The notes below the pieces were generated by a model. The model did no database searches. It was not told the DNA's origin and was given only the letters and a program-made list of their open reading frames with translations. A DNA stretch of 64,000 nucleotides. Source: Erythrobacter sp. (GTDB lineage: Bacteria; Pseudomonadota; Alphaproteobacteria; Sphingomonadales; Sphingomonadaceae). Location: positions 129,115 to 193,114 of the forward strand of contig JAPYPR010000002.1 of the NCBI GenBank assembly GCA_029937545.1, in the 5' to 3' direction. Shown piece by piece: positions 9,677-28,222 of the stretch (the first letter of the stretch is position 1; each line of letters opens with the position of its first letter). The position numbers and the translations under genes are program-made.

Positions 9677-10036
9677 GCTGGAGTTTTCCCGTGGTGTGTA
9701 GTCGATTAATTGCATTAAGAAGCAACTGTCCGGAAAATGACTGACATCAGAATGCGTTGCTGTCACCTGTTCAATCCCACACGAATGGAAGGCATCAGGT
9801 CTTTCGCTAGTCTTTCGAACGATCGATATTCGGGTGGTTAGCCGATCGGAAGGAATTGGGCCGGGATCGGATAGGTGGTTTGCCAGCGATAAGGGGCAAG
9901 CGGGTCACTGGCCGCCGACGATCTTTGGATAAATTAGTCCGATTCCCCAACTGATCTTGGCCGTTCAGCAACTTTTCTCTCCGAGCTGGCTGGCAAATCT
10001 GAATGAGCTTGTCTCTCGCCAAAAGGCATCTCCAAT

Positions 10037-10151: not shown

Positions 10152-11570
10152 ATGGCGACGATTTGGTCTAATCGAAGAGCGAATGAACTGCATGATAGCC
10201 CGGACGGTGCCGAACCCGATCCGGTTCGGTCGCGTTTTCAGCAGGACTATGACCGGCTGCTCTTCTCGACGCCCGTTCGCCGATTGTCGGACAAAACCCA
10301 GGTTTGGCCGATGGATGACAACGACGGCGTGCGAACCCGGCTAACTCACTCGCACGAAGTGGCCAATCTCGCGCGCTCGATCGGCACCCGAATCTTTACA
10401 GCGAATGCGGGACTGTTTTCTGGGGCAGACCTTCATCAAGTAATCCAGCCGATGCTTTCCGCGATCGGTCTCGCCCATGATCTAGGCAATCCGCCGTTCG
10501 GACATCAGGGGGAGGCCGCGATAGGCCGCTGGTTCGAACGTCGTAAGGAATGGATCTTCACCAATCATGACAAAGGCGCGCGCGGTTTGCCGACCGCAAT
10601 TCCCGATAGTCTTCATGCAGAGTTCCTCAAGTTCGATGGCAACCCGCAGACGCTTCGGCTGATTACCAAGCTTCAGACGAACATCGCTCATCTGGGCCTC
10701 GATCTCACTTCGGCAACGCTGGTCGCGGCGATTAAGTATCCCGTTGGCGCTTCCAACCGCGACAAGAATAATCCGATCGCCAAGAAATATGGCTATTTTG
10801 AAGCGGAACGCGGGCTTGTGGACGGGCTTCGTAAAGAAACCGGATTGGGTGAAGGGCAGCGCCATCCGCTCACTTGGATCATGGAAGCTTGCGATGACAT
10901 TGCCTACTCGGTTCTCGACGTCGACGACGCGATGAAGAAGGGCGTCCTCTCACCAGACGATGTGCTCGCGAGCCTACGGGCTGACCCAACCACTTCCTCG
11001 CAAGCCGCAGTAACGAAGGCTCAATCCAAGTTCGAGGCGGTTGAGGCCGCAGGCAGGCGTCCGGAACTGTCGCGTGACATCAAGATCGGATTTCTGCGGG
11101 CATATCTAATTGAGGCCCTAATTGAACATGCAAGCGACGGCTTTGTTGCCGCAGGAGAGGCCATCACATCCTTCTCACATCGCACCCCGTTGATGGACGA
11201 CAGCACCCTGTGTGAAAAACTCAAGTCTCTCGCCCGGCAGCATGCATTCGGTAATTCAGGTGTGTTGCAGATGGAGGCGCGCGGAGCAGAAGCGATTGAC
11301 GGCCTTGCGACCGCCTTCTGGGAAGCGATCCACGACCGATCATCGGAGGACTTCAATGACATCTTGGCCCGCCGATCCGGAGCGAAAAACAAATATGTCT
11401 TCGCGCTGATTAGTCAAAATTACCTTGAGGACGCATCGCGCGCTGCGAACGCCGACGGCATCTCTGCGTCGGTTCGTTACCGTGAGCTCCGCCTGCTGAC
11501 AGACATGCTGTCGGGCATGACTGACACTTTCACGATCAAACTCTGGGACGAGTTGAAAGGCATGCGATAG
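10152..11570 (+). CDS. dgt: HD-domain dGTP triphosphohydrolase (dGTPase), putative anti-phage type
   Basis: RSRFQQDYDRLLFS, RTRLTHSHEV, LAHDLGNPPFGHQGE (HD), DGNPQ, RHPL..MEACDDIAY, D..SGMTD. Confidence 0.93.
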   Translation: MATIWSNRRANELHDSPDGAEPDPVRSRFQQDYDRLLFSTPVRRLSDKTQVWPMDDNDGVRTRLTHSHEVANLARSIGTRIFTANAGLFSGADLHQVIQPMLSAIGLAHDLGNPPFGHQGEAAIGRWFERRKEWIFTNHDKGARGLPTAIPDSLHAEFLKFDGNPQTLRLITKLQTNIAHLGLDLTSATLVAAIKYPVGASNRDKNNPIAKKYGYFEAERGLVDGLRKETGLGEGQRHPLTWIMEACDDIAYSVLDVDDAMKKGVLSPDDVLASLRADPTTSSQAAVTKAQSKFEAVEAAGRRPELSRDIKIGFLRAYLIEALIEHASDGFVAAGEAITSFSHRTPLMDDSTLCEKLKSLARQHAFGNSGVLQMEARGAEAIDGLATAFWEAIHDRSSEDFNDILARRSGAKNKYVFALISQNYLEDASRAANADGISASVRYRELRLLTDMLSGMTDTFTIKLWDELKGMR

Positions 11571-12347
11571 GTGACACCTGCGGAAACACTACCGAAGCTA
11601 AAGCGCCGCATCGACGATTATCTGTGGCGGGAGGATGGGCTGCCGATCCAGCGATTACGTGACATATTGGCGACGAGATTCACGCCCCTGGGGCCGGTCG
11701 CCATTATCGGCGGCTTGGTCCGCGATATTGCACGCAAAGGAAAGGTCGGCTTCAGGTCTGACATCGATCTGGTGATTGATGCCGAGCCAACGCGCGTCGC
11801 TGCGCTGGCCGCTGCACTGGATGCTACGCCAAATCGCTTTGGCGGCTTCGCTTCGGTCCATCCGCACTGGAAGGTAGACTTTTGGTCCCTGCCAAACACT
11901 TGGGCTTCAGCCGTAGGACTAGTGCGCACAGACTCGTTAGCAGATCTCGTCCATACCACTTTCTTCGACTGCGATGCGATCTGCTACGAGGTGCAAAAGC
12001 GCAAGATTCATGCCCTACCGGGATATCTCGAACGGCTGACTGAGCGCACCGTCGACATCAATCTGTTGCCCAATCCTTCAATCGACGGAAACCTTTTGCG
12101 GGCTGCTCGGCGCATCCTACTCTGGCACTTTCGTCCTGGCGCGGAGCTACGTGCGTTCATCGAGCGCGAACTAAACGAGGAGTCGTTTGAGCGCATTGTC
12201 GCAACTGAGCAGAACATTCATTCGAACGATATCCTCGGCGCATTTAATGGGCCGCAGCATCTCGCCGAAGTTTTGCTAGGGGATGAAATGCCGACCCAGT
12301 TTTCTGGTTTCGGCAAGCAGCTAGAGCTTCCCGGTTTAAATGAGTAG
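11571..12347 (+). CDS. Stand-alone class II (CCA-adding/poly(A) polymerase head-like) nucleotidyltransferase
   Basis: G47-G48-L-V-R51-D52...D64-I-D66 signature, WKVDFW (candidate third Asp), TTFFDCDAI where CCA enzymes have RDFTINA; 258 aa with no body/tail; GTG immediately follows the dgt stop. Confidence 0.75.
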   Translation: MTPAETLPKLKRRIDDYLWREDGLPIQRLRDILATRFTPLGPVAIIGGLVRDIARKGKVGFRSDIDLVIDAEPTRVAALAAALDATPNRFGGFASVHPHWKVDFWSLPNTWASAVGLVRTDSLADLVHTTFFDCDAICYEVQKRKIHALPGYLERLTERTVDINLLPNPSIDGNLLRAARRILLWHFRPGAELRAFIERELNEESFERIVATEQNIHSNDILGAFNGPQHLAEVLLGDEMPTQFSGFGKQLELPGLNE

Positions 12348-12680: not shown

Positions 12681-12791
12681 CCGTTCCCGACAACGATCCG
12701 GGCGGTGTCCTCCAGCCTAAATGCTTCCGGAAGGCGAAGAATCGACTGCGGCTATCTTGCGCATCCGAGAACAAAAGCGGATCATATACGC

Positions 12792-15722
12792 ATGGGCGCG
12801 ACGCGGCAAAACAACGAGGATCAACCTCTATACCAGCATCAGCTGGAGGCCATCCTGCGCGGCATCAAACTTGAGGAGCTCGAGGCCATCGGCGCTCTAT
12901 GGAAGGTCGGTTATCGCAAGCCCCAAAATTTGGAAACAAACGCTCGATCAGTCCGGGAACGATCTGCAGCAGGTGCGGGTCGAGTAGTGGATTTCAATAT
13001 CCCGAGCCCACTGACCGGCAGGGATCGACAAGGCGGTGATCGCCGCGTCCCTCATGTTTCGATCAAACCGATCCAAGCAACGGGCCCTCGTATCAAGGGT
13101 GAGAAGCTACTTAAGGGAAAGGGACGCGAGCGCCAAAGCGGATCGCAGCATATCGATTACTTGGCAACGGGCGCCAGGCTCACGATAGGTTTCCATCTGG
13201 ACTATCTCCGCCGACAGTTCGAGAGCCATGATCCGGGCGGGGACCTCCACATCGACATGCTCGATGAGCAGGTGATGCGGGCCGAGCAGAACCGGTTATC
13301 ATACCACAGCAATATCCCCGGCGGGATCGAGCGCCACAAATCCCTGTTCGATGCGGCCGAACGCTGCGAACCTAAACCAACGCGCTATCACCTGAAGGTA
13401 AACACAGCAGCGCTCGCTGCCCTGGAAGATCTTGTCGAGGCTACAGGCGCCTCGTTCCTAGTGCAGCGCGTGGTCGACCAATTACGAGCAGACCGCGCAA
13501 AGCGGAAAGCCTTGGCGACCGCGAAAAAACAGCGCTTCAAAGAATTCCGGGCCACGGTCGCATCGGGATCGTGGAAAGAAGTAACCGACTGGCTGAAGGA
13601 ACTGGACGATCACCCGCAATTGAAGGGTATGGTATCCTGCAAGGAGGGCCGCGCCGGCCGCGTGCAGTTTCGAGTGGTATTAGAGTTGCCCGACGGTCTG
13701 ACTGCCGCGGAGCGTTATACTGTCATGCGGGACTTTTGCGATGAGCTTGGTGCTGATGGGCACATGGTTGTCGCTGCCATCCATCAGCCCGACCAGACAA
13801 ACGACAAGCGCAACTACCACATCCACGTCGATTTCTACGATCGGCCGGCCAAGTGGCTGGACGAGCACGATTGCTGGGATTTCGAATACAAGGTCCGGAA
13901 GAACGGAAAGGACACCTATCCTCTCCGGCAAAACAAGGTGCGATATCCGAAACCTCCGGCACGCCTCTTCCGGGAACGTTACATCCGGATCGTCGAGCGC
14001 GTCCGCAATGGTCGTCCCGATATTGCCGAGTTTCTCTTGGGGACCTATCAGGACAACCACATCGACCTGACACCGCTCGATCACATGGGGCCGCGCGCCA
14101 TCGGATTGGAGAAGCGCGGGGTCGTCACCGCTGTCGGGACTGAGAACGCGCGACGCATCATTTCGGATGAAATGCGGCATGCCGAAAAACAGGCCCGGAC
14201 CGAATATTTAAACGAGATCGAGGCGGTGCTCCAAATGCTTCGATCCGCCACAAGCGATAAACATGCCTCCGATGCGCTATTGCGCTTCATCGATCTGCGC
14301 AAAAAGATCTCCGAGCGCCGGCTTCAGGCGGAGTTGGGCAGAATTACCGTCAGAATGACGCGGTCGCGCGCGGACGCCGTGATCAGGACGCTGACGCCGG
14401 AACCGGGCCGCCCAGTGACACCAAGAAAAGGCGATGCCGCCCTGCTCAAGAACGCCCGGGCTCATGTCGCCTGGCTCGAGAGCCATGCACCCGGCGAAGA
14501 CATGATCGCGGCGGAGCAGCGACTTTTGGATGATCTGGAGAAAGCCGCCGCGGAAGCAAAAGCGAAAGTCCTGGCAGTGTGTTCAGAGCCTACCGCAGGC
14601 CAATCCGTAGCGGTTCAGGACGTCAACGAGCCTGACGTTTCAACCTTCGAGAAGAAGCAGACGAAACCGTCACAGTTTGACGAGTTGAAACGCCAGCGCC
14701 TTCATTCCTGGTTGGATAAGCACATCGAGGACCCGGCTTGCCTTCGGATGGAGCCGTCCGCCTTTCTTCGCGGAGAACGGATGCCGAAGGCTATTCGCAC
14801 TCTCATGGCGCAATTCGCGCATGAGCCGGAGTTCGTGAACCGATTGAGAGCGGAACGCGCGCGAAGATCGCTTCCTTCGCCCACGGCCAGTGTCGTAGAA
14901 CAGCCGGTCTCAAGGTCCCTTCCAACGTCTCCGTCTTTGGGTTCCGAGCCAACGTCGCATCCTAAGCTGAATGGATCTCGCGGTGGCCTACTGATTAGCA
15001 CTTCAGCGAAACCGCAGTCAGACGTGCAATCAAGCCGTAATCCGTCCGGGACCATCAATCCAGCGAGCGTCCGAGGGGATCACGGCGGATCGCCAACGGA
15101 CCCCGAGAGGCACGAAAATAGCCGGCTGATGCAAACGACAGCATCGGTCAAACCGGAGCCACATAGCAGCAACCTCTTCCACGAGAGCAGAGCTACTGCG
15201 GCTCAGTTCATATTGATGCATCAGAAAATACAGGGGAGGAAGAAACGGAGACGATCGCCTGACCCAGTTGGCTTTAACCGATCGGAGCAATCTTATGAGC
15301 GGGACGATCACGAACTGAACAGTCCTGGCGAGCAGGAAGTGCAAGCAGACCGGCTTCGTCGTGCTGTCCGGAAGGAAGCGATCAATGGAACGCCCCTTGT
15401 CACGACGGGGCACTCTACTGGTCAGGGCATTCAACCACACACAGACGCAAACGTTTCGGATGATGCGAAGAATGACGATGGTCGTGCGAGGATCGAACCA
15501 CGTGATCCAAGTATGCGAAAACCATCGGGTCCGGATCGTGTTATCGGCTCACCCAGAGTAACCGATCCGCACTCCAAGCGAGAGACGAATGGTGTTCAAG
15601 CAGATCAGAAGCCAATCGCGGCGACCGGACCATCCAAGGGATCGCCACCGTTGCTTCGAGCGAAGGGGCGAGATGATGATAGCACACCAGTGCCAGAATC
15701 ATCGAGGGGACGTGGCCGCTAG
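12792..15722 (+). CDS. MobA/MobL (MOBQ-like) relaxase with a long low-complexity C-terminus
   Basis: HIDYL/HLDYL (candidate catalytic Tyr), VVLELPDGL, AAIHQPD...NYHIHVDFYDRP (3H motif); P/S/R-rich tail ending SRGRGR. Confidence 0.8.
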   Translation: MGATRQNNEDQPLYQHQLEAILRGIKLEELEAIGALWKVGYRKPQNLETNARSVRERSAAGAGRVVDFNIPSPLTGRDRQGGDRRVPHVSIKPIQATGPRIKGEKLLKGKGRERQSGSQHIDYLATGARLTIGFHLDYLRRQFESHDPGGDLHIDMLDEQVMRAEQNRLSYHSNIPGGIERHKSLFDAAERCEPKPTRYHLKVNTAALAALEDLVEATGASFLVQRVVDQLRADRAKRKALATAKKQRFKEFRATVASGSWKEVTDWLKELDDHPQLKGMVSCKEGRAGRVQFRVVLELPDGLTAAERYTVMRDFCDELGADGHMVVAAIHQPDQTNDKRNYHIHVDFYDRPAKWLDEHDCWDFEYKVRKNGKDTYPLRQNKVRYPKPPARLFRERYIRIVERVRNGRPDIAEFLLGTYQDNHIDLTPLDHMGPRAIGLEKRGVVTAVGTENARRIISDEMRHAEKQARTEYLNEIEAVLQMLRSATSDKHASDALLRFIDLRKKISERRLQAELGRITVRMTRSRADAVIRTLTPEPGRPVTPRKGDAALLKNARAHVAWLESHAPGEDMIAAEQRLLDDLEKAAAEAKAKVLAVCSEPTAGQSVAVQDVNEPDVSTFEKKQTKPSQFDELKRQRLHSWLDKHIEDPACLRMEPSAFLRGERMPKAIRTLMAQFAHEPEFVNRLRAERARRSLPSPTASVVEQPVSRSLPTSPSLGSEPTSHPKLNGSRGGLLISTSAKPQSDVQSSRNPSGTINPASVRGDHGGSPTDPERHENSRLMQTTASVKPEPHSSNLFHESRATAAQFILMHQKIQGRKKRRRSPDPVGFNRSEQSYERDDHELNSPGEQEVQADRLRRAVRKEAINGTPLVTTGHSTGQGIQPHTDANVSDDAKNDDGRARIEPRDPSMRKPSGPDRVIGSPRVTDPHSKRETNGVQADQKPIAATGPSKGSPPLLRAKGRDDDSTPVPESSRGRGR

Positions 15723-15876: not shown

Positions 15877-16389
15877 ATGCCTGAAATTTTAAATACGCCC
15901 ATGTCGCCGTGGGAGCGTCTGCTGGCGCTCCCACTCATGGAGCTCGAAGCTTCCACCGTCGCTAGCTGGCACCTTCGAGGCCTGCCAAGCGGCTCTCTCG
16001 ATGTGCCGCAATGCAGTGTGATCTTGGCCAGTTCCGACGATGCCGAGCGGTTCGATCTCGCCATGTTGAAGACCGCTACCACACAAAATCGCGACGTGCT
16101 GCTGATGCGGTTGGCGACAGGAATGGGTGCCAACCAGACTACCGCTGTCACAATCGATGCGGTGCTGCGTTCGCCCCTCGAGCCGATCCTGCTGACGAAC
16201 CTTGTGCCCTGCAGGCTCGCCGACGGTGCGCTGTGGTTCGTGACCGAGAACCGTGGTCGGAGCCTGGTCGTCGAGCCCACCGGGCTATCCATCCGGTGGA
16301 GAGCGCCGGCGTCGCCATGCGAACTAGCGTTGGGCCGTGAGCGGGTGGCCGCCGAGATCGGCTTCATCTTGAAGGGAGCAGAGTTCTGA
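15877..16389 (+). CDS. Hypothetical protein (170 aa), coupled to the next gene
   Basis: Stop overlaps the ATG of 16389 (TGATG); no recognised motif. Confidence 0.6.
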   Translation: MPEILNTPMSPWERLLALPLMELEASTVASWHLRGLPSGSLDVPQCSVILASSDDAERFDLAMLKTATTQNRDVLLMRLATGMGANQTTAVTIDAVLRSPLEPILLTNLVPCRLADGALWFVTENRGRSLVVEPTGLSIRWRAPASPCELALGRERVAAEIGFILKGAEF

Positions 16390-17036
16390 TGGCCCGGACC
16401 AAAACAAAGCCCCGCACGAAAACGCCGTCGCGCAAGGCCGTCGACGAAAAGGATCCGAGAACCTGGCTCTTCGAGAATCCGGACGGATCAACCGGAGACG
16501 GGTTCGTCTTCGCCGTTCTGCGTAAGGTTTATAACAAGCGAGCCAACAGTGCCGCCGAGCTCGCTTGGCGGAAATGTCACGTCGGCCCGGATTACAAGGT
16601 ATGGGATCCGTCGGTCTGGCAGCCGAATATCGAGCGGCTCGAGGTGCTCCTGCCGGAGAAGGCTGACGACCTACTCGCCGATCCGGTCACGCTGATGCGA
16701 CAGGTGGACGAATTCGCGGCGCCCAACCAGGCGGGCCTGCTGACTTATTTGTCGTTACCGCTTGGAGATGCCGACCGCGTCCATATTGCCTGGGAGCGCT
16801 CTCGGGCTTTCGCGCGGCGATTGGCGTCCGAACGAAAGCTCGCCAGCCTCGTCATGTTGCACGCCCCCGGTCTGATTGGAGCGGATCTGCCTCTTCACGC
16901 GCATCTACTCATAATCCCGCGTCAGATATCCGGTCTTGGGATGAAACACGCCCCTTACGATCGGCTACTCGTGCATGATGACGGCCAAGACTTTTTGCAC
17001 GGCATGTGGGCTAAGCACCGCGAAGGAGGCGTGTGA
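16389..17036 (+). CDS. Small MobA/MobL-like relaxase-domain protein (possibly degenerate)
   Basis: LEVLLP, AWERSRAFARR, VMLHAPG...LHAHLLIIPR resemble MOBQ motifs II/III; SAAELAWRK has W where motif I normally has Y. Confidence 0.6.
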   Translation: MARTKTKPRTKTPSRKAVDEKDPRTWLFENPDGSTGDGFVFAVLRKVYNKRANSAAELAWRKCHVGPDYKVWDPSVWQPNIERLEVLLPEKADDLLADPVTLMRQVDEFAAPNQAGLLTYLSLPLGDADRVHIAWERSRAFARRLASERKLASLVMLHAPGLIGADLPLHAHLLIIPRQISGLGMKHAPYDRLLVHDDGQDFLHGMWAKHREGGV

Positions 17037-17359: not shown

Positions 17360-18268
17360 TCATGCAGCCCAATGCTGCGTATGATAGATCGCCGAATAAT
17401 CAGCGACCTCGTAAGGCTCCACGCCAAGGCACTCTAGGAAGAACCGCTTTTCGCGGTGTCGCTCATCATCTTCGCACGTGGGATACACATACCAAGCTGG
17501 GGGACGCTCCCCACCACGCTTTTTGTAAAGGGCAGCCCGTTGAATTAGCAGCCAGCGCAACCAAACTTCCTGTCCATCTAGGGCGATGCCAAACACGACG
17601 AGGGGCATCTTGAACAAAATATCTAACCAAGTGTCTTCGCCAGCCCAGTGAGGAAACTCACGCGCGTCGAGAACCCAAGGACGGCATCGTGTCACGCAGC
17701 CCATGTAATCGCTAAGGCCCAAACGGATGCTTTGGATATGGGAAATGAAGCCGTTAATATGCCAGACGCCAAACCCATCGCATGGCCGATTAAGAGGCTC
17801 GCGTGCGAAATATTTTTCCCACGGGTAGTAGGCAGTCGATCGTTTCCTGCTCCCGCGTGGACGAAACAAGGATTGGCGTTCTGCTCGGACAGCATCAGAA
17901 AGCGCAAGATCGAAGTTCGTGGTAAGGATGGGTGAACCATGCCTGCGTGCCCATTCCGCAATTTCTCTGTGGTGTGGTGAAGGTTCCCAGTTTTCCATCC
18001 CATCACAAAATTGCCGCTTTAATGGATACGCCTCGCTGGCGGTCTTTGGCTCTCTCTCCGTAGACCGCCCCAAATCAATCAGGTCATAGAACTCCGGCAT
18101 CGCGAGGTTCTTTGCCCTCTCCGGCGAAGGGAACTCGTTGTCTCTTGCCAGGCGCTCAACGAGTGCGTTCCAGCTCTGCCCACCGTTCGGATAAAGGTGA
18201 ACGCCGTTGCCGATTAGCAAGGCAACTCGCCCACCGGCACGGCGCCGCAGTTTGTCGATCACGGACAA
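17360..18268 (-). CDS. SIR2-like (SIR2_2) domain protein, putative NADase defence effector
   Basis: ALLIGNG..SW..LV, ILTTNFD, VWHING, IRLGLSDY, LVVFG.ALD: the SIR2_2 motif order. Confidence 0.75.
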   Translation of the reverse strand: MSVIDKLRRRAGGRVALLIGNGVHLYPNGGQSWNALVERLARDNEFPSPERAKNLAMPEFYDLIDLGRSTEREPKTASEAYPLKRQFCDGMENWEPSPHHREIAEWARRHGSPILTTNFDLALSDAVRAERQSLFRPRGSRKRSTAYYPWEKYFAREPLNRPCDGFGVWHINGFISHIQSIRLGLSDYMGCVTRCRPWVLDAREFPHWAGEDTWLDILFKMPLVVFGIALDGQEVWLRWLLIQRAALYKKRGGERPPAWYVYPTCEDDERHREKRFFLECLGVEPYEVADYSAIYHTQHWAA

Positions 18269-18326: not shown

Positions 18327-18965
18327 TTAGCTGGTCTTTGGAGGCGTGTCGGTAGGCTTCCAATGCATTGAAACAGCCTTGTGTCTCACATGGAAGGGAA
18401 GGCCGGATGAGCGGTGCTTGTGTTGTGAGAAAAAGTGCAGCGGGTTACCGTCGGTTGATTTCTCGGCTTTCACATCGGCATTTTTCTCGAGTAGTTTTGT
18501 CCGCCACTTCTCGAGCATGCTGGCCGCGTCCGCGACATAGCAATAAATGATCACGGCACCGTGATCCTGGCCTAGGACGCCAGTGGAATATCGCCTAGAT
18601 AGCTGCTTGAAGCCTTTGTTGAGCCACTCGTAGGCATCGTGTTCTTTTGCTTCGGCGAGCCAAAGGAAGAGATCTTTCCCTTTGATGACTATGTCACAAT
18701 GACCTCCGACATTGGCGTCATGGCTGGCATCAAACCCAGCCGTTGTCAGCATATTGCAAATGTCGACCGTGATTTGGTCCTCGCCCAAACCCTGCTTCTT
18801 ATTCTTCGATTGCTCTAGTAAGTTGCAGGCATAGTCGATCCCCTTGTTGACTGCTGTCACACGTTGCGGATGGGTTTCAGCGAGCCAGTAATCGATTGAT
18901 GCTGCTGCCGGGGTGCCGTCAAACTGCGCCCTTAACTGTTCGATCGTGGGGGACGGGGCGCTCAC
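18327..18965 (-). CDS. PD-(D/E)XK-like nuclease (212 aa)
   Basis: EDQIT...GGHCDIVI...WLAEAKE = E...D...ExK arrangement; GTG overlaps the upstream TGA (GTGA). Confidence 0.65.
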   Translation of the reverse strand: MSAPSPTIEQLRAQFDGTPAAASIDYWLAETHPQRVTAVNKGIDYACNLLEQSKNKKQGLGEDQITVDICNMLTTAGFDASHDANVGGHCDIVIKGKDLFLWLAEAKEHDAYEWLNKGFKQLSRRYSTGVLGQDHGAVIIYCYVADAASMLEKWRTKLLEKNADVKAEKSTDGNPLHFFSQHKHRSSGLPFHVRHKAVSMHWKPTDTPPKTS

Positions 18966-21900
18966 TTGTCATTCTCGCCGAAGAGTTCACCTAGTGGGTG
19001 GAAGACGGGATGAACGTGGGCTGCCGCCTGTTCCACCATCTCACCCGAGTTTGGGTGGGTCACGGTGTCGCTAGTCAGAAGACGTTCGATCTCTTCGCTA
19101 GAGAGTGGATGGCGCTGGCCCTCTTTGTCGACGAACTCAGCTCCGGTTTTTAGCGCCGTAAAGCGAGACTGGGTCAGGATCGTCAATGCGGCGACGATTT
19201 CCTCGGTGACCTCATCGGTGTTCAATAAGCCTAGAACGTCGTTGATACTCAGCACTCGGTTCGGTGCGCTGGAATTGGAAAGCTTTTCAAGAATTGATAT
19301 TGCAAGGTTTGCAGCCGTTCCGCTTTGCCAGTTATCCTCGATGCCCTCCCGTATTTGCCTAAGCGTCATTGATTGAGGCGATCCGTCAGCATTCGCTGTT
19401 TCAGCGATCTCCAGCCTCGGCAGGGCGCGGACGATCTTCATCGTTTCCAGGCTGACGGTGATGACGCGCTGGAACAACTTGAGGGGGTAGGCCGGGTCAC
19501 CCATCGTCTCGTTCGCGAAGTCGTTGGCGTCCCATGTGATACCGCTCTTCTTGTCGGTCTTCACGCCCTGGCGCTCGATCACCCATTCGAGGGCGGGCTT
19601 GCCGTTAACCACATAGTCGTAGGCTTCGATCGGAATGCCGGTAATGGTGATGTTGGAATTGTAGATCACAGTGGTCTTGTCGGCTTCCGGCTTGCCCTCA
19701 GCGTTGCGAACCTTGTGGAAGCGCATCTTTTCGACGCGGTAATACTTCACCGGATCGGGAATATGCGCAAGATCGAGCGATCCTTGCGCAATGGTAATCG
19801 GGGCAAGTGGCGCGCTATGGTAGTCGCAATGGAGGTCGGCCAATTGCCTGCCGGCTTTGACGAATTTCCAGAAATCAGCAACGCTTTTCAGCTTGGGAAT
19901 ACGCGGCAATTCCTGCCTGAGATTGTCCTCAAAATCGGAACAATAATCATCATGATGGAAAAGCGCATATAGGAAGTAGAACACATCTTCCTTGGCGATC
20001 TTTTCGTCAGCGTAATCGGCTTGGAAGCGCGAAAGCGCCACATCGGAAACGCCATCCAAGGTGACATCTCCACTGAGATCAAGTTCGCCCTCAGTCGATG
20101 AGGCCCCATCGTATAACTTCAACGGAAAGCACTGAGAGCCCGCCATGTCACCGAAGTGGATGCTGGGAAGAATGTCCGTCATCAATGCCGAGAAGCGTCC
20201 CCGGAAGCCCGGACCGGACAGGCAGATGACACGGTTGGGCGTGTCGGGTGTCGGAAAGTATCGATCCGTGAGGTATTTGCTCCAATTCAACCGGCTGTCC
20301 ATATAGAGGAACTGGGGGCTGAACGGTCGATAATTGGCGAGCCGAATCTTGTTCGCATCAAATTGGTATTCGCGACCGTTTGCTAGATCGCCGAGGGTCT
20401 TCTGGCACCACTTGAACTTGGTATCGTCGTCGTCGGGCGTGAAGTTGGAAGGTAGCGAATTGAAGTAGGCAATGGCCTTGGTGGTTATGTCCGCGAGTTT
20501 GGCCCTTGATGGATTGTATGTCCAAATGTCGCGATTGGTTTTCATGCCCGCCGAGTAGGTGGGGAAAATGCTGGGCTCACTCCCATCCTTGGCTGCGATC
20601 GCGAGAAAACCCGAGTATTTTTCAGAACCCTGGTTGATCCAAATGCCGTTCTCGTCGGGCTCAATGTCCTCCCATCCGTTCGAGCGCCCGATGCCGCCGA
20701 TGCTTCCAAAAGCTCTGATCCGTTCGAGTTTTTCCGCTTGGCTCAGATAATCACCAATATCGTGGAACCGAATTACTCGCTCGGTGGCGGCGGGATTTTT
20801 GACAAGGACTGAGATCGCGATTGGCGCTCGGCTCCCTTGACCGAATACATTGTCACGCTCCTTGCGGCGACGCTCTCCCGCAGTCCGCGCATTACCTCTC
20901 AGGTGGAAAATGTGGATCGACGAGAAATCTTCTTGGAAGCAATGCCGAAGGCCGTCTGTCACATTACCATCGACCCAGCCTCCGTTGCTGACAAAGGAAA
21001 CGATTCCCGCATCACCAATGCGATCACTCGCCCATCGAAAGGCGCGGATGTAGCTATCGTAAAGCGCGCGTTTGTTGGTCATTCGAGTTCGCGCCGCAAA
21101 GGTTTCGCGGATACGCTCGTCTAATTTGGGATAAACAACATTTGCCGCGTCATCGTTCGCGCTACTCTGGCCTACTGAATAGGGAGGGTTTCCGACGATA
21201 ACCTTGATGTCGAGTGCCTTTTGCCGCGTGCGCCTGTTTGAGTTGTCGGGCATCAGCGTGGCGAGCAAATCCTTGTCCTGCTCGTAAAGCTGGAAGGTGT
21301 CGGTCAGGCAGATGCCCTCGAACGGCTTGTAATCGCCCTCGGCCACGCTGTGGTAGGCGGCCTCAATGTTGATCGCCGCGATGTAGTAGGCGAGCAGCAC
21401 GAGTTCGTTGGCGTGGATTTCCTTCGCGTATTTCCGTTCAAGCTCCTCGGGCTTGATCAGGCCGGATTGCAGAAGGCGCGTGATGAATGTGCCAGTTCCG
21501 GTGAAGGGATCGAGGATGTGGACGCCCTCGCTGCCCAAGGTCTGGCCGAACTCGGATTGCAGTAGCTCGTCCACCGAGTGGAGGATGAAGTCCACCACCT
21601 CGACTGGTGTGTAGACGATGCCCAGGCGCTCGGTCATCTTCGGGAAGGCGTTGCGGAAGAACTTGTCGTAGAGTTCGACGATGATTTTCTGCTTGGCCTC
21701 GTCCTTGTCGATGCCCTCGGCGCGGCGACGAACGCTGGCGTAGAACCGCTTGAGGCTGTCGGCCTCCTTGTCGATGTTGTGGGCATCGAGTGTTTCAAGC
21801 ACCGTCTGCATCGCCTTGGAGACCGGGTTGTTCTTGGCGAAGCTGTAGTCTTCGAACAGCGCTTCGAAGACCGGGCGAGTGATAAGGTGCTGAGCAAGCA

Positions 21901-24247
21901 TTTCGATTGCCTCGCCTTCACCAATGCTCTCGTTCAGGTCATCCCGGATCTCGTCGAGGAAACCCTCGAAAGCCTCGCGCTCGGGAGTGCCGGGTTTTTC
22001 AACCAGGCCCTGGATGCGGTTGATGTGGGTCTGGGCGATCTTGGCGATGTCGGTCGCCCAATCCTCCCAGTAATCGCGCCGACCGCACTTCTTGACGATC
22101 TTGGCCATGATTGCCTTGGAGAACTCGTCGAACTCGAAGTTGTTCTGGAACGGGGTGTCGCCGCCCTTGGGCTTGCTGTCGCCGTCGCTACCGTCGTTCT
22201 CGTCTCCGCCTTCGCCGCCGCTGCCGATGTTGGAGCCGTTCTTGGCGGCATCCTTACGGGCGGGCAGCTTGTTGCTGACGGCGATCACCTCGATGTGGTC
22301 GCTAACATTGACACCCAAGCTGGCCTTGTTGATCATCGCATCGAAGCGTTCGTCGTGTGACCGCAGCGCGTTGAGGATTTGCCAGACGACGCGGTAACGC
22401 TCGTTGTCGTTGAGCGCGTCTTCGGGCGTCACACCGGCAGGAACGCCGATGGGCAGGATGACATAGCCCATGCGCTTACCCTCGGCGCGACGCATGACGC
22501 GACCCACCGACTGGACGACATCGATCTGGCTCTTGCGCGGGTGCATGAACAGGATCGCGTCGAGCGCCGGGACATCGACGCCTTCCGAGAGACAGCGAGC
22601 ATTGGACAGGATGCGGGCTATCTGGTCGCCATGGACTTCCTTGAGCCAGTCGAGGTGCGCGGTGCGCTCTTTCGCGCCCATGGTGCCATCGACGTGGTGG
22701 ACCTGCACTTCGAGCGGCTCGATGTCTCCCAGAGCTTCCTGGCCCTCCTCCGATGCGAGGTATTCGCTCACCACCGACTGGAACTCGGTGCGGATCAGTT
22801 TGGAGGCGGCGATGTCCTTGCAGAAGGCGAGCGCGCGCTGCATCGGCTGCCCGTCGCCCGCGAGTTCTTCCTTGAGCCCCGATTTGACCAGCGCCTTGTA
22901 GCACCCGATGATCTTGGTCGCGTCGTCGAGCTTGAGTTCGCTGGTGCCATCGGCAAGCCGGTTTTGAACACCACCGCTGACCATTGCTTCGTCCACGGCG
23001 AGCACGAGCACCTTATAGTCGGTGAGCAGGCCGTTCTCGACTGCCCAACCGAAGCCCTTGGTCAGGAAGGTTTTGCCGTATTTGGACTCATCATCCATGT
23101 CGGCAAGTTCAGCAGACAGATCGTTCGCCTTCGCGCGTGCTTTTTCGCCAAAGACTCGCGGCGTAGCCGTCATGTAGAGCCGCTTTTTCGCAGCGATGAA
23201 GCTTTGGTCATGGACCTTGACGAAGTTGCTTTCGTCTTCGTCTACAAAGGTAACGCCGGTGGTGCGGTGCGCTTCATCGCAGATGATCAGGTCGAACTCT
23301 GGAAAGCCGTGCAGCTTCTGCGCATCCGAGATCACTTGGATCGACTGATAGGTCGAGAAAACCACCGTCATCCGGTCTGGCGCGGCATGCGATGCCTTGC
23401 TTGCGAGCTTGGTGGCGTTGGTTGTGGCCGGATAGTCGAGGTCGTGAAGCTCGATCTCGGCTATATCGTCCTTATCCTTGCGGCGCTTGCCCACGGCTGC
23501 GTCCGAGCAAACCGCGTAGGACCGGAGCGGCGTCTGGCTGTCGATAGTCCACTCACGGATAGTCTGGCTCATCAGCGCTAGGGACGGCACCAGCACTAGC
23601 ACATTGCCGCCCTTGCTGACGAGTTCTTCGGCGATTTTTAGGCCGGTGAAGGTCTTGCCTGTGCCGCAAGCCATGATGAGCTTGCCGCGATCGGCTTCGC
23701 GGAATCCGTCGCGCACACAATCCAGCGCCTCGATCTGGTGAGGCCGCAGCTTCTTTGGTTCAGCGACCTTCACTTCTTCGCGCTGAAACCAGGCCGCCCA
23801 GTCTATCGGGCTGGCCTCAAGTCGTTCGAGACCGATCGTGGTGATGTTCAGGTCGTCGAGCAGCGCCTCTGCATTGGGGCTCCACGGCGCACCGGTGGTC
23901 TCGATGATGATTCCGCGCGAGAAGTGCTTTTGCTGGGACGAAGACAGGAAGCTGTCGATGTCCTTCTTCTGGATACGGTGGCCCTCTGCGAAGAACTTGC
24001 ACTGGATCGCGCAGAAGCCGTTTTTCTCCCTGATCTTGGCCACGGCATCGATGCCGATGTCTGCTGCGGACAGGTTGTGCTGTTTCGCCCAATCTGAAAA
24101 CAGCCATGCGTCTTCGTATTCTTGGGCCATGCCAGGGTCGGCCTTGATGAAGGCGACCGCAAGTCGCTCGAAATAGGTGCCTTTCTCGCGCTCAGTTTTC
24201 GATGATGTCCGGAACTGTTCGAGAAGCTGGCGAAGCGGCGTAGACAA
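18962..24247 (-). CDS. Type ISP (LlaBIII/LlaGI-like) restriction-modification enzyme with an extra ~135-aa C-terminal domain
   Basis: Mrr-like nuclease DIGID...AIQCK; SF2 helicase MACGTGKT, DEAHR, QSVGRVMR; N6-MTase LDPFTGTGTF and GNPPY; ISP C-terminal YDYVVNGKPALEWVIERQ...MKIVRALP; likely TTG start at 24247 with a GGGGG SD. Confidence 0.92.
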   Translation of the reverse strand: MSTPLRQLLEQFRTSSKTEREKGTYFERLAVAFIKADPGMAQEYEDAWLFSDWAKQHNLSAADIGIDAVAKIREKNGFCAIQCKFFAEGHRIQKKDIDSFLSSSQQKHFSRGIIIETTGAPWSPNAEALLDDLNITTIGLERLEASPIDWAAWFQREEVKVAEPKKLRPHQIEALDCVRDGFREADRGKLIMACGTGKTFTGLKIAEELVSKGGNVLVLVPSLALMSQTIREWTIDSQTPLRSYAVCSDAAVGKRRKDKDDIAEIELHDLDYPATTNATKLASKASHAAPDRMTVVFSTYQSIQVISDAQKLHGFPEFDLIICDEAHRTTGVTFVDEDESNFVKVHDQSFIAAKKRLYMTATPRVFGEKARAKANDLSAELADMDDESKYGKTFLTKGFGWAVENGLLTDYKVLVLAVDEAMVSGGVQNRLADGTSELKLDDATKIIGCYKALVKSGLKEELAGDGQPMQRALAFCKDIAASKLIRTEFQSVVSEYLASEEGQEALGDIEPLEVQVHHVDGTMGAKERTAHLDWLKEVHGDQIARILSNARCLSEGVDVPALDAILFMHPRKSQIDVVQSVGRVMRRAEGKRMGYVILPIGVPAGVTPEDALNDNERYRVVWQILNALRSHDERFDAMINKASLGVNVSDHIEVIAVSNKLPARKDAAKNGSNIGSGGEGGDENDGSDGDSKPKGGDTPFQNNFEFDEFSKAIMAKIVKKCGRRDYWEDWATDIAKIAQTHINRIQGLVEKPGTPEREAFEGFLDEIRDDLNESIGEGEAIEMLAQHLITRPVFEALFEDYSFAKNNPVSKAMQTVLETLDAHNIDKEADSLKRFYASVRRRAEGIDKDEAKQKIIVELYDKFFRNAFPKMTERLGIVYTPVEVVDFILHSVDELLQSEFGQTLGSEGVHILDPFTGTGTFITRLLQSGLIKPEELERKYAKEIHANELVLLAYYIAAINIEAAYHSVAEGDYKPFEGICLTDTFQLYEQDKDLLATLMPDNSNRRTRQKALDIKVIVGNPPYSVGQSSANDDAANVVYPKLDERIRETFAARTRMTNKRALYDSYIRAFRWASDRIGDAGIVSFVSNGGWVDGNVTDGLRHCFQEDFSSIHIFHLRGNARTAGERRRKERDNVFGQGSRAPIAISVLVKNPAATERVIRFHDIGDYLSQAEKLERIRAFGSIGGIGRSNGWEDIEPDENGIWINQGSEKYSGFLAIAAKDGSEPSIFPTYSAGMKTNRDIWTYNPSRAKLADITTKAIAYFNSLPSNFTPDDDDTKFKWCQKTLGDLANGREYQFDANKIRLANYRPFSPQFLYMDSRLNWSKYLTDRYFPTPDTPNRVICLSGPGFRGRFSALMTDILPSIHFGDMAGSQCFPLKLYDGASSTEGELDLSGDVTLDGVSDVALSRFQADYADEKIAKEDVFYFLYALFHHDDYCSDFEDNLRQELPRIPKLKSVADFWKFVKAGRQLADLHCDYHSAPLAPITIAQGSLDLAHIPDPVKYYRVEKMRFHKVRNAEGKPEADKTTVIYNSNITITGIPIEAYDYVVNGKPALEWVIERQGVKTDKKSGITWDANDFANETMGDPAYPLKLFQRVITVSLETMKIVRALPRLEIAETANADGSPQSMTLRQIREGIEDNWQSGTAANLAISILEKLSNSSAPNRVLSINDVLGLLNTDEVTEEIVAALTILTQSRFTALKTGAEFVDKEGQRHPLSSEEIERLLTSDTVTHPNSGEMVEQAAAHVHPVFHPLGELFGENDK

Positions 24248-24525
24248 TTGGACCCCCATAAACGATATTTGGCGACGGTAGTGAGAAGACTCCTTGTCGC
24301 CAAGCATCACGCATGCATTCACACCGATTTTTGAGAGTTTTCCGAAGGTTATTAATAACGCAATGCGGCCACACGTTCCGGATGCGTCCCAACGATCACT
24401 AAGCGGACTGCAATTATCGGATCGTGCGTTCCCGTAAGTCGATCGTCCTGACGCACGGGAGTTGCACCAATTGAAAAAGACCGTTGTGTTACGCTCGATT
24501 TGTCGGCGTGAATATCTGCAAGATC

Positions 24526-25151: not shown

Positions 25152-25518
25152 ATCGCAAAAACCACCAGAATTGAAGATCGAATCTATCCGACGTCTGATC
25201 GATCCGGACGAAAGCGTTGTCGGCGCTTTAGCGCTCTAGAAAAAAGATCACGAGTTGCGGCCTGCCACCTAAAAGATTGTTGCATGGCAACATGTTACCG
25301 ATACTGTCGTTTGGTCCCCAATAACGCCACTATCGCTAACATCTTGCCCCAACAAGCCGACTTCAATTCTTATCGAAAAGTGGGCTGGCTGCAGAAAGAG
25401 AAATTTTGACCGGCGCAAATTTTTTGCGATAAGATGCTCTGAAAATGGGACTAATGGAAGAAAGTGACCGATTTGAGTGCCGCGTTGGCAATGCCGGCAA
25501 GGCGGTGGAGAGGTGAAA

Positions 25519-26823
25519 ATGACCGACGCGAAGCAAAATTTTGATTCTTGGTTGTTCAATGCTCGAGAAGGGAAATATCGGGCTGGCAGTGCGGTGAATG
25601 TCAGCGATACCGCTGATTTCGCCGTAGAGGGTCTTGTGCCTGCTACAGGCGTCTCAATGTGGTTTGGTCCAGGCTCAACCGGTAAAACGCAGATGCTTCT
25701 ATGGATGGCCGCTCACATTGCAGCGCCTGCGAATACAGGACCCCGCGATTGGCTTGGGGCTCGTATTCAGAAGAGGGGGCACGTATTATTTCTTTCAGCT
25801 GAAGATACCCGCGAGCACATCTTTATTCGTATCGGCGGCATGGCGAAAGCTATGAAGGTCCAATTTCCGGAGATCGACGAGCATGGTCTCTGTGACCGCA
25901 TTCACGTCATCCCTTTCCTTAGTCTCGATGAAGCCGAGTTCGCGGCAAAAAGCCCGAGCCTATTCCAAGGCCATCGAAACGATTGGAACCCTTCACCTAC
26001 ATTGCTGGGTGTGGAGCAACTTATCGACACGTGGAACGCAGATCACGATCCTGACGACCAAATTGTCGCAGTCATCATGGACTCCGCGGTTTCGATGAGT
26101 GGTTTTGATCTTACAGATTCCGAAGCAACCACCGAATTCCTCTTCAGGATCAATAGAGTTTCCAATCGTCAGGGGGTCTTTTGGGCTATCGTCGGACACA
26201 CACCGAAAGGTGCCGGGATCAAAAATGATCCACTGGAAGGCGCTGCTGATCGCCTGAGGGGATCGGCGATGTGGTCGACAACGCCGCGCACTGTTGTCGA
26301 ACTGAGGATAGCAAGCGACACTGAGAATCTTACTGATATCTACCGCGCCTTTCCAACCCTCGGCAAGCGGGACATCGTCGTCGCGAATGTGGTAAAATCT
26401 AATTCCAAAGGTGCCGACTTCAAGCCACGCGTCCTCCGACGACTTTCAGAAGGCGCATTCGAAGACCTTACTGCCGACTACCCTGATATTTGCAGGTCTT
26501 GGAGCCCAATCGCCCCGGAGCCTCTGACGAGCTTCCAAGGTCGCAAGGCAGCGGTATGCGAAATGATTCGAACGGTCACAGATGGAGCCAGTGAAGGAGC
26601 AACCTTCAAGCGGGATCAATTGGAAGCTGAGTTTCAAAGGAACTCATCGAATTATCCGGCACTAGCAGATGTGATTGGACTATCCAGCCGTAAGCATGAG
26701 AAAAACGGAGACTCACTCGCTTATATTCTGCGCCTTCTGAAGGACGACGGTCTTATACAAGTCCAGAGGAACGGGCCTATTAAGGTTTTGGCCCTCAATG
26801 ACACGGCAAATTCAGCCGGATAG
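25519..26823 (+). CDS. AAA_25 / RepA-like RecA-fold helicase
   Basis: GLVP..GVSMWFGPGSTGKT, VLFLSAED, VIMDS, IVGHTPKG, LRGSAM. Confidence 0.8.
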   Translation: MTDAKQNFDSWLFNAREGKYRAGSAVNVSDTADFAVEGLVPATGVSMWFGPGSTGKTQMLLWMAAHIAAPANTGPRDWLGARIQKRGHVLFLSAEDTREHIFIRIGGMAKAMKVQFPEIDEHGLCDRIHVIPFLSLDEAEFAAKSPSLFQGHRNDWNPSPTLLGVEQLIDTWNADHDPDDQIVAVIMDSAVSMSGFDLTDSEATTEFLFRINRVSNRQGVFWAIVGHTPKGAGIKNDPLEGAADRLRGSAMWSTTPRTVVELRIASDTENLTDIYRAFPTLGKRDIVVANVVKSNSKGADFKPRVLRRLSEGAFEDLTADYPDICRSWSPIAPEPLTSFQGRKAAVCEMIRTVTDGASEGATFKRDQLEAEFQRNSSNYPALADVIGLSSRKHEKNGDSLAYILRLLKDDGLIQVQRNGPIKVLALNDTANSAG

Positions 26824-26876
26824 TAGATCTAAAAGTATCTTTCTGGGTGTGTGATAGCACACCTAGAGAGGAAAAT

Positions 26877-27239
26877 ATGAGTTTTCACGATAGATTATTG
26901 GATCGAAAAGGTAGGGGGAAGGTAGACCGACCACTCAGGCAAGAAAGGCCGGCACTCCTCGTCCAACGAAGTTCTGAAGTAGCTGGGGGATGGATTGGAA
27001 AGTCTGCTTCACACAGAAAAAATTCCGAGGCGGTCACATTCCCGAAGACTCGTTACGAGAAGCAGGTTGATCCTCTGTCGGATCCTCCATTTTCAGTTCG
27101 TAGCCTTGCCGAACGCTGGTGCTGTTCAGAGAGCACGGTGCGGAATGAAATTAGTGCCAATCGGCTCAGTCACTTCCGTATTGGAGACCTTATTCGGGTG
27201 TCGGCCGCCGAGGTGGCGAGGTTCGAATGTCAGGAGTAA
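26877..27239 (+). CDS. Excisionase-like HTH_17 DNA-binding protein
   Basis: C-terminal SVRSLAERWCCSESTVRNEISANRLSHFRIGDLIRV; overlaps the integrase start. Confidence 0.75.
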   Translation: MSFHDRLLDRKGRGKVDRPLRQERPALLVQRSSEVAGGWIGKSASHRKNSEAVTFPKTRYEKQVDPLSDPPFSVRSLAERWCCSESTVRNEISANRLSHFRIGDLIRVSAAEVARFECQE

Positions 27240-28222
27240 GACCATACACCGTTCAGCGACTTAGGGGTGGTTTCGCAATCGTATGGTATGAGGGTGATAA
27301 ACGCCATCGGCGTCAGCTTGACTCAAACGAGCGTGTAAACGCTGAAGCGGAAGCACGCCGTTTGTGGGAAGCAGCGGATGATACCCCTTGGACAATTGGA
27401 AGGATTGTAGAAGGATACATATCCCATCTAGCCAAGAGCGATCCTCCTTCGCTCCAGCGGAGGAAAGATGCTTGGAAAGCGATGCGATCGTTTTGGGGAA
27501 ACGTCGAACCAGCGATGATCGACGATGAAATGTGTATTGATTACCGAGCTCGTCGGCCAGTGGCGGATTCGACGGTGCGGTATGAGCTTCTGCTACTGTC
27601 TACGGCATTGAATTGGGCGAAAAAGAAAGAACACATTCTCGACCGCCCATCGATCTGGCTGCCCGAGAAAGATGCTTATCGGATACGCTATCTCGAACGA
27701 AATGATTTCGAAGAATTCTACGGAGCCGTCAAATCGCCTCATGCTCGCCTATACGTCCTTTTAGGCGTATACACGATAGCGCGCCCCTCTGCGATCCTTG
27801 AGCTCGAATGGTCTCGAGTCGATTTTGAGCGCCGACAGATCGATCTCAATCCAGTTGGGCGACGTCAGACAGCAAAAAGGCGCCCAATCGTTCCTATCAA
27901 TAGCGAACTGCACGAAGCTCTGGCGGAAGCATTCGAGGCAAGGCAAAGTGACTTTGTCATCGAGCGTGGCGGCGAGCCAATTCGGAGCATTAAGAAAGCC
28001 TTTCAAGCCGCCAGCAAACGTAGCGGCATAAAGGCTACGCCTTACACCTTGAGACATACTGGGGCGGTGTGGGCTGCCGAAGCAGGAGTATCAATGGCTG
28101 CGCTGGCGCAACTCATGGGACATGACGACGATCGCACAACCCAAAAGCACTACGCGCGCTTCTCTCCAGGCTACTTGAAAGACGTAGGCGATAAGATCGC
28201 AAAAGGTAGAAGAAGGCGGTGA
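27227..28222 (+). CDS. int: Tyrosine recombinase / phage-type integrase
   Basis: ARPSAILEL (R), PYTLRHT, QLMGH, QKHYA (catalytic Y); points at the tRNA-Pro att. Confidence 0.93.
   Translation: MSGVRPYTVQRLRGGFAIVWYEGDKRHRRQLDSNERVNAEAEARRLWEAADDTPWTIGRIVEGYISHLAKSDPPSLQRRKDAWKAMRSFWGNVEPAMIDDEMCIDYRARRPVADSTVRYELLLLSTALNWAKKKEHILDRPSIWLPEKDAYRIRYLERNDFEEFYGAVKSPHARLYVLLGVYTIARPSAILELEWSRVDFERRQIDLNPVGRRQTAKRRPIVPINSELHEALAEAFEARQSDFVIERGGEPIRSIKKAFQAASKRSGIKATPYTLRHTGAVWAAEAGVSMAALAQLMGHDDDRTTQKHYARFSPGYLKDVGDKIAKGRRRR

Follow-up and report, generated by a model that had tools for sequence, protein, structure and literature searches.

A Type ISP restriction-modification enzyme of Erythrobacter sp. 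fused to the second protein of an uncharacterised three-gene cassette and followed by a predicted nuclease gene

Why would the gene of a Type ISP restriction-modification (R-M) enzyme run on past its usual terminus into a foreign domain and end in overlap with the gene of a second, predicted nuclease? The question is raised by a locus on the minus strand of a 64,000-nucleotide stretch of Erythrobacter sp. DNA (assembly GCA_029937545.1, contig JAPYPR010000002.1, positions 129,115 to 193,114), called the window hereafter. We refer to the 135-amino-acid (aa) C-terminal domain of the enzyme as c2, to the 212-aa protein encoded next to it as c0, and to a further gene absent from the window as c1; the three are, respectively, genes 2, 3, and 1 of a cassette found elsewhere. 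In short, the fusion turned out to be recurrent, c2 and c0 to derive from that cassette, and the same domain to be carried by other proteins, so that c2 and c0 together look like a portable second-layer effector module, previously undescribed.

The fusion open reading frame (ORF) counts 1,786 codons from a GTG at 24322. Its true start is uncertain, as further in-frame ATG codons are found at 24307 (M6) and 24259 (M22). An earlier, sequence-only reading of this DNA had proposed that the ISP terminus lacks a stop, and this was confirmed: the junction reads ...MKIVRALPRLEI-AETANADGSPQS-MTLRQIREG... and is stop-free, the frame staying open through the linker AETANADGSPQS into c2. The 135-aa tail, which begins at ATG 19369 and finishes with ...HPLGELFGENDK, has the TGA that was described as overlapping the GTG of the 212-aa gene (Table 1). 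This GTGA overlap is an arrangement typical of translational coupling, and a -4 overlap before c0 recurs in many related loci. The same reading had noted that the internal ATG (19369-19367) lies in an ATGA context and that the +1 frame there gives ...SLKQRMLTDRLNQ followed by a stop. Both details are seen as stated, while the suggestion that this frame is the relic of a former upstream gene was dropped as evidence, because at most about 11 codons extend beyond ISP-homologous sequence and this is too short.

The identity of the core as a Type ISP enzyme is solid. Pfam profiles for Mrr_cat_2 (E = 2e-35, residues 60-182), ResIII, Helicase_C, ISP_coupler (E = 4.8e-52), N6_Mtase, and Type_ISP_C (E = 8.6e-94, profile positions 1-341 of 342, ending at residue 1615) were all detected, and positions 5-1645 of the 1,646-position PADLOC profile REase_MTase_IIG were matched by residues 30-1644. 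The domains are arranged as expected of the class, with an N-terminal Mrr-type nuclease (GID...IQCK), a superfamily 2 (SF2) motor (GTGKT, DEAH), and a coupler, followed by a gamma-type N6-adenine methyltransferase (DPFTGTGTF and NPPY) and the Type_ISP_C target-recognition domain. LlaGI and LlaBIII, both Type ISP enzymes, have the same domain order and likewise possess the catalytic motifs. All 10 genomic ISP fusions described below retain intact motifs for the nuclease (GxD...IQCK), the motor (GTGKT, DEAH), and the methyltransferase (DPFxGTGTF, NPPY), and they look like working R-M enzymes and not like wrecks. As members of the Type ISP class, they would be predicted to translocate along DNA with ATP, to cleave on collision, and to hemimethylate an asymmetric site.

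Ordinary enzymes of the LlaGI and LlaBIII kind stop at ...LPRLEI-like termini, whereas the window enzyme adds 147 residues and a coupled nuclease-like gene. We compared its terminus with those encoded in 400 other sampled genomes of the class, 47 of which contained Type_ISP_C proteins. For 16 of these enzymes, the alignment reached the end of the ISP core; all 16 terminated within -2 to +10 residues of the position matching residue 1640, while the window enzyme extends 146 residues past this point. The extension is thus not a common property of ordinary ISP enzymes, and the tail is foreign to them, as had been supposed. A genome of the same genus (G146, contig 4, 5736-6779) encodes a different Type_ISP_C enzyme, with about 29% identity over the terminal 100 residues. 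That enzyme ends at the normal position and its genome is devoid of c0, indicating that the fused module is strain-variable cargo.

We then asked whether the fusion is a one-off. A word-index search with the 135-aa piece alone returned no match, owing to the limited sensitivity of the method; restricted to the tail, it returned one other long protein, P0005, on contig L001. The gene order of this contig is that of the window: a 1,783-aa ISP enzyme that carries the tail comes first, then a 212-aa gene overlapping it by 4 bases, and then a 304/306-aa gene. The ISP enzymes are 66% identical, the tails 63-64%, and the 212-aa proteins 86%, and the L001 orthologue starts near M22 of the window enzyme. 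When one genome per species was scanned for the c0 family, 36 loci were obtained, adding 8 loci in which an ISP enzyme of 1,763-1,795 aa has the same terminal domain, with a tail 31-41% identical to that of the window. The in-frame fusion hence persists at 9 other genome or assembly loci (ISP 53-68% and tail 31-64% identical), giving 10 genomic ISP-c2 loci with the window counted. For metagenomes, the c2 alignment was too divergent to be used as a seed and c0 was used instead, revealing about 17 ISP-tail loci, about 12 of them distinct. Both locus scans were pattern-limited and yielded 36 genome loci and 52 metagenome loci. As the open frame is conserved across diverged relatives, a lost stop is very unlikely, and, judged from these comparisons, we consider the ISP-c2 fusion to be real and out of the ordinary for ISP enzymes. 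The internal methionine at the start of c2, in contrast, is shared by the window and L001 but occurs in none of the other 8 ISP fusions, so that a product initiated at 19369, an idea also raised by the sequence-only reading, is not a conserved feature; no clear Shine-Dalgarno sequence was seen upstream of this ATG.

If the tail is foreign to ISP enzymes, where does it come from? An exhaustive c2 profile search of 1.84 billion representatives gave 116 proteins (mostly 117-160 aa) at E <= 0.001, about 107 of which are stand-alone homologues of 68-169 aa. In about 90 loci, c2 lies directly upstream of c0 on the same strand, whatever lies upstream of the pair. A separate c2 gene (130-149 aa) was found in about 20 genomic and 22 metagenomic loci, each time preceded by c1, a conserved gene of 347-400 aa (about 360 aa) with frequent stop/start overlap with c2. 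This gene accompanies unfused c2 in nearly every locus with enough upstream sequence and is absent wherever c2 is fused, in genomic and metagenomic loci alike. The ancestral unit is therefore a three-gene cassette, c1 (~360 aa)-c2 (~135 aa)-c0 (~210 aa), of prophages and defence islands. A complete copy is carried by Klebsiella phage KP12 (OM835953.1, L038:3370-5564), where it encodes proteins of 368, 142, and 215 aa, annotated as hypothetical, and is located between a replication gene and the portal-terminase-capsid block, which corresponds to a P2-like variable locus. By tblastn, c0 also matched 7 records of Stx1a-converting phages, as well as phages of Acinetobacter and Moraxella. The cassette is rare, since neither it nor c0 occurred in any of the 400 sampled genomes of the class.

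The window has its c2 and c0 homologues side by side on one strand, with c2 first, as in the cassette. No c1 was found anywhere in the 99.99%-complete genome to which the window belongs, and the ISP enzyme occupies its place; the locus is thus a derived two-gene form and not a canonical member. The three families match PHROG entries that are all of unknown function (phrog_12777 for c1, phrog_11490 for c2, and phrog_9664 for c0), the window tail matching phrog_11490 with an E value of 1.9e-8 and the window c0 matching phrog_9664 with an E value of 6.5e-49. No significant match to the window tail or c0 was obtained in Pfam, NCBIfam, or PADLOC. PADLOC also lacked a significant match (E <= 0.01) for c0, c2, and c1 as families, and a PDB sequence search with the three profiles gave no match.

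The ISP enzyme is not the only protein to carry c2 at its C terminus. Other partners are a Type I HsdR (L028:6441-9944, with HsdM upstream), a Type III Res (L090, an upstream ORF of 1,171 aa with ResIII and RE_endonuc), and an SF2 helicase-type protein whose sequence is similar to a Type IIG profile (L006:6915-9995, L091, and L101). The list further includes a FeeM-type N-acyl amino acid synthase, an acyltransferase (L020:8442-9992, L111, and L112), and P0155, which has a TIR_2 domain and a predicted membrane segment. Finally, three loci (L029:8245-9963, L036:8263-9963, and L114) encode a fusion of c2 with EF-Tu, which is complete in length and retains its G motifs. These EF-Tu-c2 proteins score 716-739 bits on EF-Tu models and are followed by c0. 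The genomes of L029 and L036 have two normal tuf genes each in addition to the fused third copy, which is 88-91% identical to them; EF-Tu in this fusion looks like a captured host protein that may serve as bait or delivery vehicle. An hhalign comparison of c1 with the fusion partners revealed no shared domain.

How often c2 was captured was addressed with a maximum-likelihood phylogeny of c0, in which the copies linked to ISP enzymes fall into a single, weakly supported group (81/86). The helicase form of L006 is nested in this group, which sits inside a clade of c1-type cassettes. Although the tree as drawn requires two changes of the ISP label, its well-supported branches are compatible with a single ISP origin. 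The EF-Tu, HsdR, and FeeM forms are on other branches. The tree points to a single capture by an ISP enzyme with a subsequent change of partner, and to no fewer than three other, independent captures; it is compatible with the replacement of gene 1 by an ISP enzyme, which had been put forward from the window alone.

We next considered what the two proteins could do. Across an alignment of 25 c0 sequences (107 homologue clusters in all), H89, D91, and E105 were invariant and K107 was conserved in at least 90%, within the context GGHCD...FLWLAEAK, so that c0 has the D...(D/E)-x-K arrangement of the PD-(D/E)xK core. The AlphaFold2 model (predicted local distance difference test [pLDDT] score of 93) shows three strands at residues 79-108 and an N-terminal helical extension preceding the core. 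Its best fold matches in the PDB, as determined with Foldseek, were NucS/EndoMS (probability 0.90-0.95), CinB (0.97), Can2, Cdn1, and a Cas4-family protein, with weak E values of 5e-3 to 7e-2. By motif and, with these weak E values, by fold, c0 is PD-(D/E)xK-like, in agreement with the sequence-only reading, and a metal-dependent nuclease activity is predicted. In the model of c2 (pLDDT score of 92), the first half is helical and winged-helix-like, and the conserved HP.TG loop belongs to a small beta subdomain that comes after it. Compared with the PDB and BFVD, the model had no match at E <= 0.001; the fold hints obtained, winged-helix (MarR-like) and WWE-like, were nonsignificant.

The sequence-only reading had suggested that the R-M enzyme possibly recruits or activates a backup nuclease, and we see this as a plausible idea. 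We propose that c2 would act as an adaptor between proteins, binding the c0 nuclease and holding it in check, while the input signal would come from whatever is attached to c2, that is, from c1 non-covalently or from a fused partner covalently. The ISP enzyme of the window would then serve as a normal first-line R-M enzyme and, at the same time, as sensor or bait. A change in its state during infection would switch on c0, which would cut nucleic acid, DNA being the likeliest substrate. Engagement of the enzyme on unmodified DNA could be the trigger or, as we think more likely, its block by a phage anti-restriction protein, and the outcome would be a second, probably abortive, defence layer, following the same logic as PrrC with EcoprrI. 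We would give this adaptor-and-input mechanism, taken as a whole, an even chance of being correct, and we are far more confident about the anatomy of the locus and its evolutionary history.

DNA-mimic anti-restriction proteins such as Ocr and ArdA inhibit the motor subunits of ATP-dependent R-M enzymes. A guard-type mechanism is favoured by the fact that the c2 partners are mostly R-M motors, which are targets of anti-restriction proteins, along with a spare EF-Tu, which is bound by phage proteins. In its strongest form, c2 and c0 would make up a portable guard cartridge that could be joined, through one small adaptor, to any protein attacked or hijacked by phages, and the fused protein, while still doing its normal job, would be an integrated decoy whose perturbation unleashes c0. 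This would be the bacterial counterpart of the integrated-decoy domains in plant nucleotide-binding leucine-rich repeat (NLR) receptors; we regard this form as a tentative and rather doubtful extension of the adaptor mechanism.

Several points weigh against the proposed mechanism. A contact between c2 and c0 is suggested solely by gene order, coupling, and co-inheritance, and the winged-helix-like half of c2 raises the possibility that it binds nucleic acid instead of, or besides, protein. Furthermore, c1 had no match in Pfam, PADLOC, or NCBIfam (all 20 members, E <= 1) and has no recognisable domain that would hint at the part taken over by the ISP enzyme. FeeM and the TIR-membrane protein are not obvious phage targets, so that a pure bait model leaves these fusions uncovered. 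Lastly, 4 of the 7 partner kinds are DNA-translocating restriction subunits, and simple recruitment fits this equally well.

Recruitment is indeed the main rival. Here, c2 would only tether a second nuclease to translocating restriction motors, leading, after the ISP enzyme has located unmodified DNA, to extra cuts or more thorough degradation with no inhibitor sensing and no suicide. Most partners are ATP-driven (ISP, HsdR, Type III Res, and SF2 helicase), and DNA nucleases, e.g., NucS/EndoMS, are among the closest folds to that of c0, both in line with such a role. However, the ISP, HsdR, and Res partners own a nuclease domain already (HSDR_N and RE_endonuc were detected by Pfam in the latter two), making an extra nuclease not obviously needed, and EF-Tu, FeeM, the TIR-membrane protein, and c1 are not DNA motors. 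Weighing both sides, we find recruitment alone unlikely.

It is less probable still that c0 and c2 are a toxin and its antitoxin, the fusion merely tying retention of the gene or island to survival without any phage sensing. The gene order resembles that of type II systems, with a small winged-helix-like protein upstream, a nuclease downstream, and a 4-base overlap, and the loci are on mobile elements. Against this, the conserved c1 that goes with unfused c2 would be superfluous to a two-part pair, one would hardly expect a labile antitoxin to be joined to stable proteins about 1,700 residues long, and the partners are strongly enriched for defence enzymes.

We rank slightly lower the explanation that c2 is a nucleic-acid- or ligand-binding accessory domain altering recognition by the ISP enzyme, with c0 as an independent neighbour. 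The weak MarR-like winged-helix and WWE-like resemblances would agree with such a function, but none of them is significant, the ISP enzyme has a complete target-recognition domain already, and c2 and c0 are inseparable across the approximately 90 loci. An artefact or dead fusion, whether through a lost stop, misassembly, or a neutral event confined to a single lineage, can practically be set aside, given a frame that is open in 10 of 10 genomic ISP fusions with tails of 31-64% identity and in about 17 metagenomic loci and a tail that retains the conserved positions of its family.

The adaptor-and-input mechanism has precedents among systems in which an R-M enzyme is backed by a second effector. 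The Type Ic R-M system EcoprrI is thought to silence the anticodon nuclease PrrC, which is released when a phage peptide blocks restriction (bioRxiv 10.1101/2023.04.06.535777). What is shared is a latent nuclease genetically tied to an ATP-dependent R-M system, of which the window shows the genetic linkage only. In contrast to PrrC, c0 is a sequence-unrelated 212-aa PD-(D/E)xK protein, no homology to PrrC being found with Pfam, NCBIfam, and PADLOC profiles, and the link is made by a covalent, putative adaptor domain on a single-chain Type ISP enzyme. Ronin combines an HsdMS-like decoy with the 61-aa RonA and is an R-M-like sensor of anti-restriction proteins, and EcoR22I, a Type III R-M system, causes cell death as well (Silas et al., bioRxiv 10.1101/2023.04.06.535777). 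These two resemble our proposal in the control of a death effector by an R-M or R-M-like system, and the c2 partners, too, include Type I and Type III enzymes. Ronin differs in having a small membrane effector and an R-M part without HsdR, whereas the c2 partners are complete, motif-intact restriction subunits and the presumed effector is soluble and nuclease-like.

For the EF-Tu-c2 relatives, a form absent from the window, the closest likeness is to defences whose phage-sensing apparatus involves EF-Tu. Avs7, a STAND NTPase, recruits the cell's own EF-Tu non-covalently to sense a phage capsid protein (PMC13581612). The EF-Tu-c2 relatives, on the other hand, consist of a duplicated EF-Tu gene fused to c2. 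The Lit protease is another defence using EF-Tu.

The sequence-only reading had likened the 135-aa and 212-aa proteins to genes 2 and 3 of three-gene hypothetical defence cassettes and had tentatively named Rst_3HP. A three-gene cassette of hypothetical proteins, here from a prophage hotspot, and the two gene positions were borne out, but the name was not. Rst_3HP (hp+hp+hp, from E. coli E1114) comprises three genes without predicted domains, is located in a P2 hotspot, and protects against P1 (PMC9122126); its proteins have 333, 359, and 227 aa (Rousset et al. 2022, PMC9122126 Table S2). We compared c0, c2, and c1 with Hp1-Hp3 (pFR109) by hmmsearch and hhalign and rejected their identity, the best probability being 4.8% at less than 2 bits. 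The two systems are alike as three-gene domainless cassettes in the same P2-like variable locus; they differ in consisting of unrelated proteins, with sizes of 333/359/227 aa versus about 360/135/210 aa.

We found neither the cassette nor c2 described in Pfam (2025), NCBIfam 20.0 (June 2026), or PADLOC-DB 2.0.0, nor any ISP, HsdR, or Res protein bearing such a tail. The same was true of PHROG annotations and of the literature searched, bearing in mind that PADLOC dates from 2023 and that names given in 2024-2026 may escape. The combination of R-M with a back-up effector is already known; what is new is the presumed adaptor, derived from an uncharacterised cassette and re-used by fusion on several R-M classes and on EF-Tu. 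If our interpretation holds, the widespread Type ISP class would include a variant with a built-in second effector, offering a simple two-gene system for studying the bacterial response to phage anti-restriction, and c1-c2-c0 would be an undescribed defence candidate of P2-like and other prophages. The natural series of fusions would identify c2 as the coupling element and name candidate inputs, the bacterial guard or integrated-decoy idea would become directly testable, and the 135-aa adaptor could be used to tether a controllable nuclease to a chosen protein.

Table 1. Coordinates of the fused gene, its parts, and adjacent features in the window
Feature	Position	Strand	Basis
Whole fused gene: Type ISP R-M enzyme with C-terminal c2	18962..24322	-	ORF list, translation
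Type ISP core, residues 1-1639, ending ...RALPRLEI	19406..24322	-	Pfam and PADLOC profiles, motifs
12-residue linker AETANADGSPQS, from ISP terminus to c2	19370..19405	-	Sequence not conserved among fusions
c2 domain, 135 aa, residues 1652-1786	18965..19369	-	Profile search, phrog_11490, AlphaFold2, alignment
GTGA overlap: fusion-gene TGA (18964-18962) and c0 GTG (18965-18963)	18962..18965	-	Sequence
c0, 212-aa predicted PD-(D/E)xK nuclease	18327..18965	-	Homologue clusters, alignment, phrog_9664, AlphaFold2
Promoter-like site TCGACT-18-GATAAT upstream of fusion gene	24413..24442	-	Consensus match only, weak
SIR2-like gene, 302 aa, 58 bases downstream of c0	17360..18268	-	Pfam SIR2_2

The gene following c0, also on the minus strand, encodes a 302-aa SIR2-like protein. 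Its match to SIR2_2 is limited to residues 114-192 (E = 1e-4; 22.9 bits against a cut-off of 24.5 bits), and it had no PADLOC match. This gene accompanies the module only in the window and in L001, being absent from 8 of the 10 genomic ISP-c2 loci and from all 52 metagenomic loci, and it was thus ruled out as a third component. It occurred in 1 of 300 other sampled genomes and, without the module, on plasmids of Sphingomonas and Agrobacterium, adjoining a DUF3883 giant protein on the latter; it may be a defence candidate in its own right, consisting of a single gene. The promoter-like site of Table 1 is one of 6 such sites detected, where 3.4 were expected. The promoter and terminator scan was uninformative, the counts being near those of shuffled sequence.

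The locus belongs to a mobile island flanked by a CHASE3-GGDEF (diguanylate cyclase) gene and thymidylate synthase. Other genes of the island encode an AbiJ_NTD4-like protein, an HD-type dGTPase-like protein and its 258-aa partner, a 1,005-aa MobA/MobL relaxase, AAA_25, and a tyrosine integrase, and they span positions 8618-9766 (-), 10152-12347 (+), 12705-15722 (+), and 25477-28222 (+). The interval from the relaxase to the SIR2-like gene contains a pair of neighbouring ORFs (15877-17036, +; 170 and 215 aa) that overlap by start and stop at 16389 and have no Pfam match. Related loci, too, have defence-type or mobile genes around them: L001 has an integrase, AlpA, and a resolvase as neighbours, L036 adjoins an AAA_21 ATPase, and L006 adjoins a DUF4011 helicase with a REase_MTES_1575 domain.

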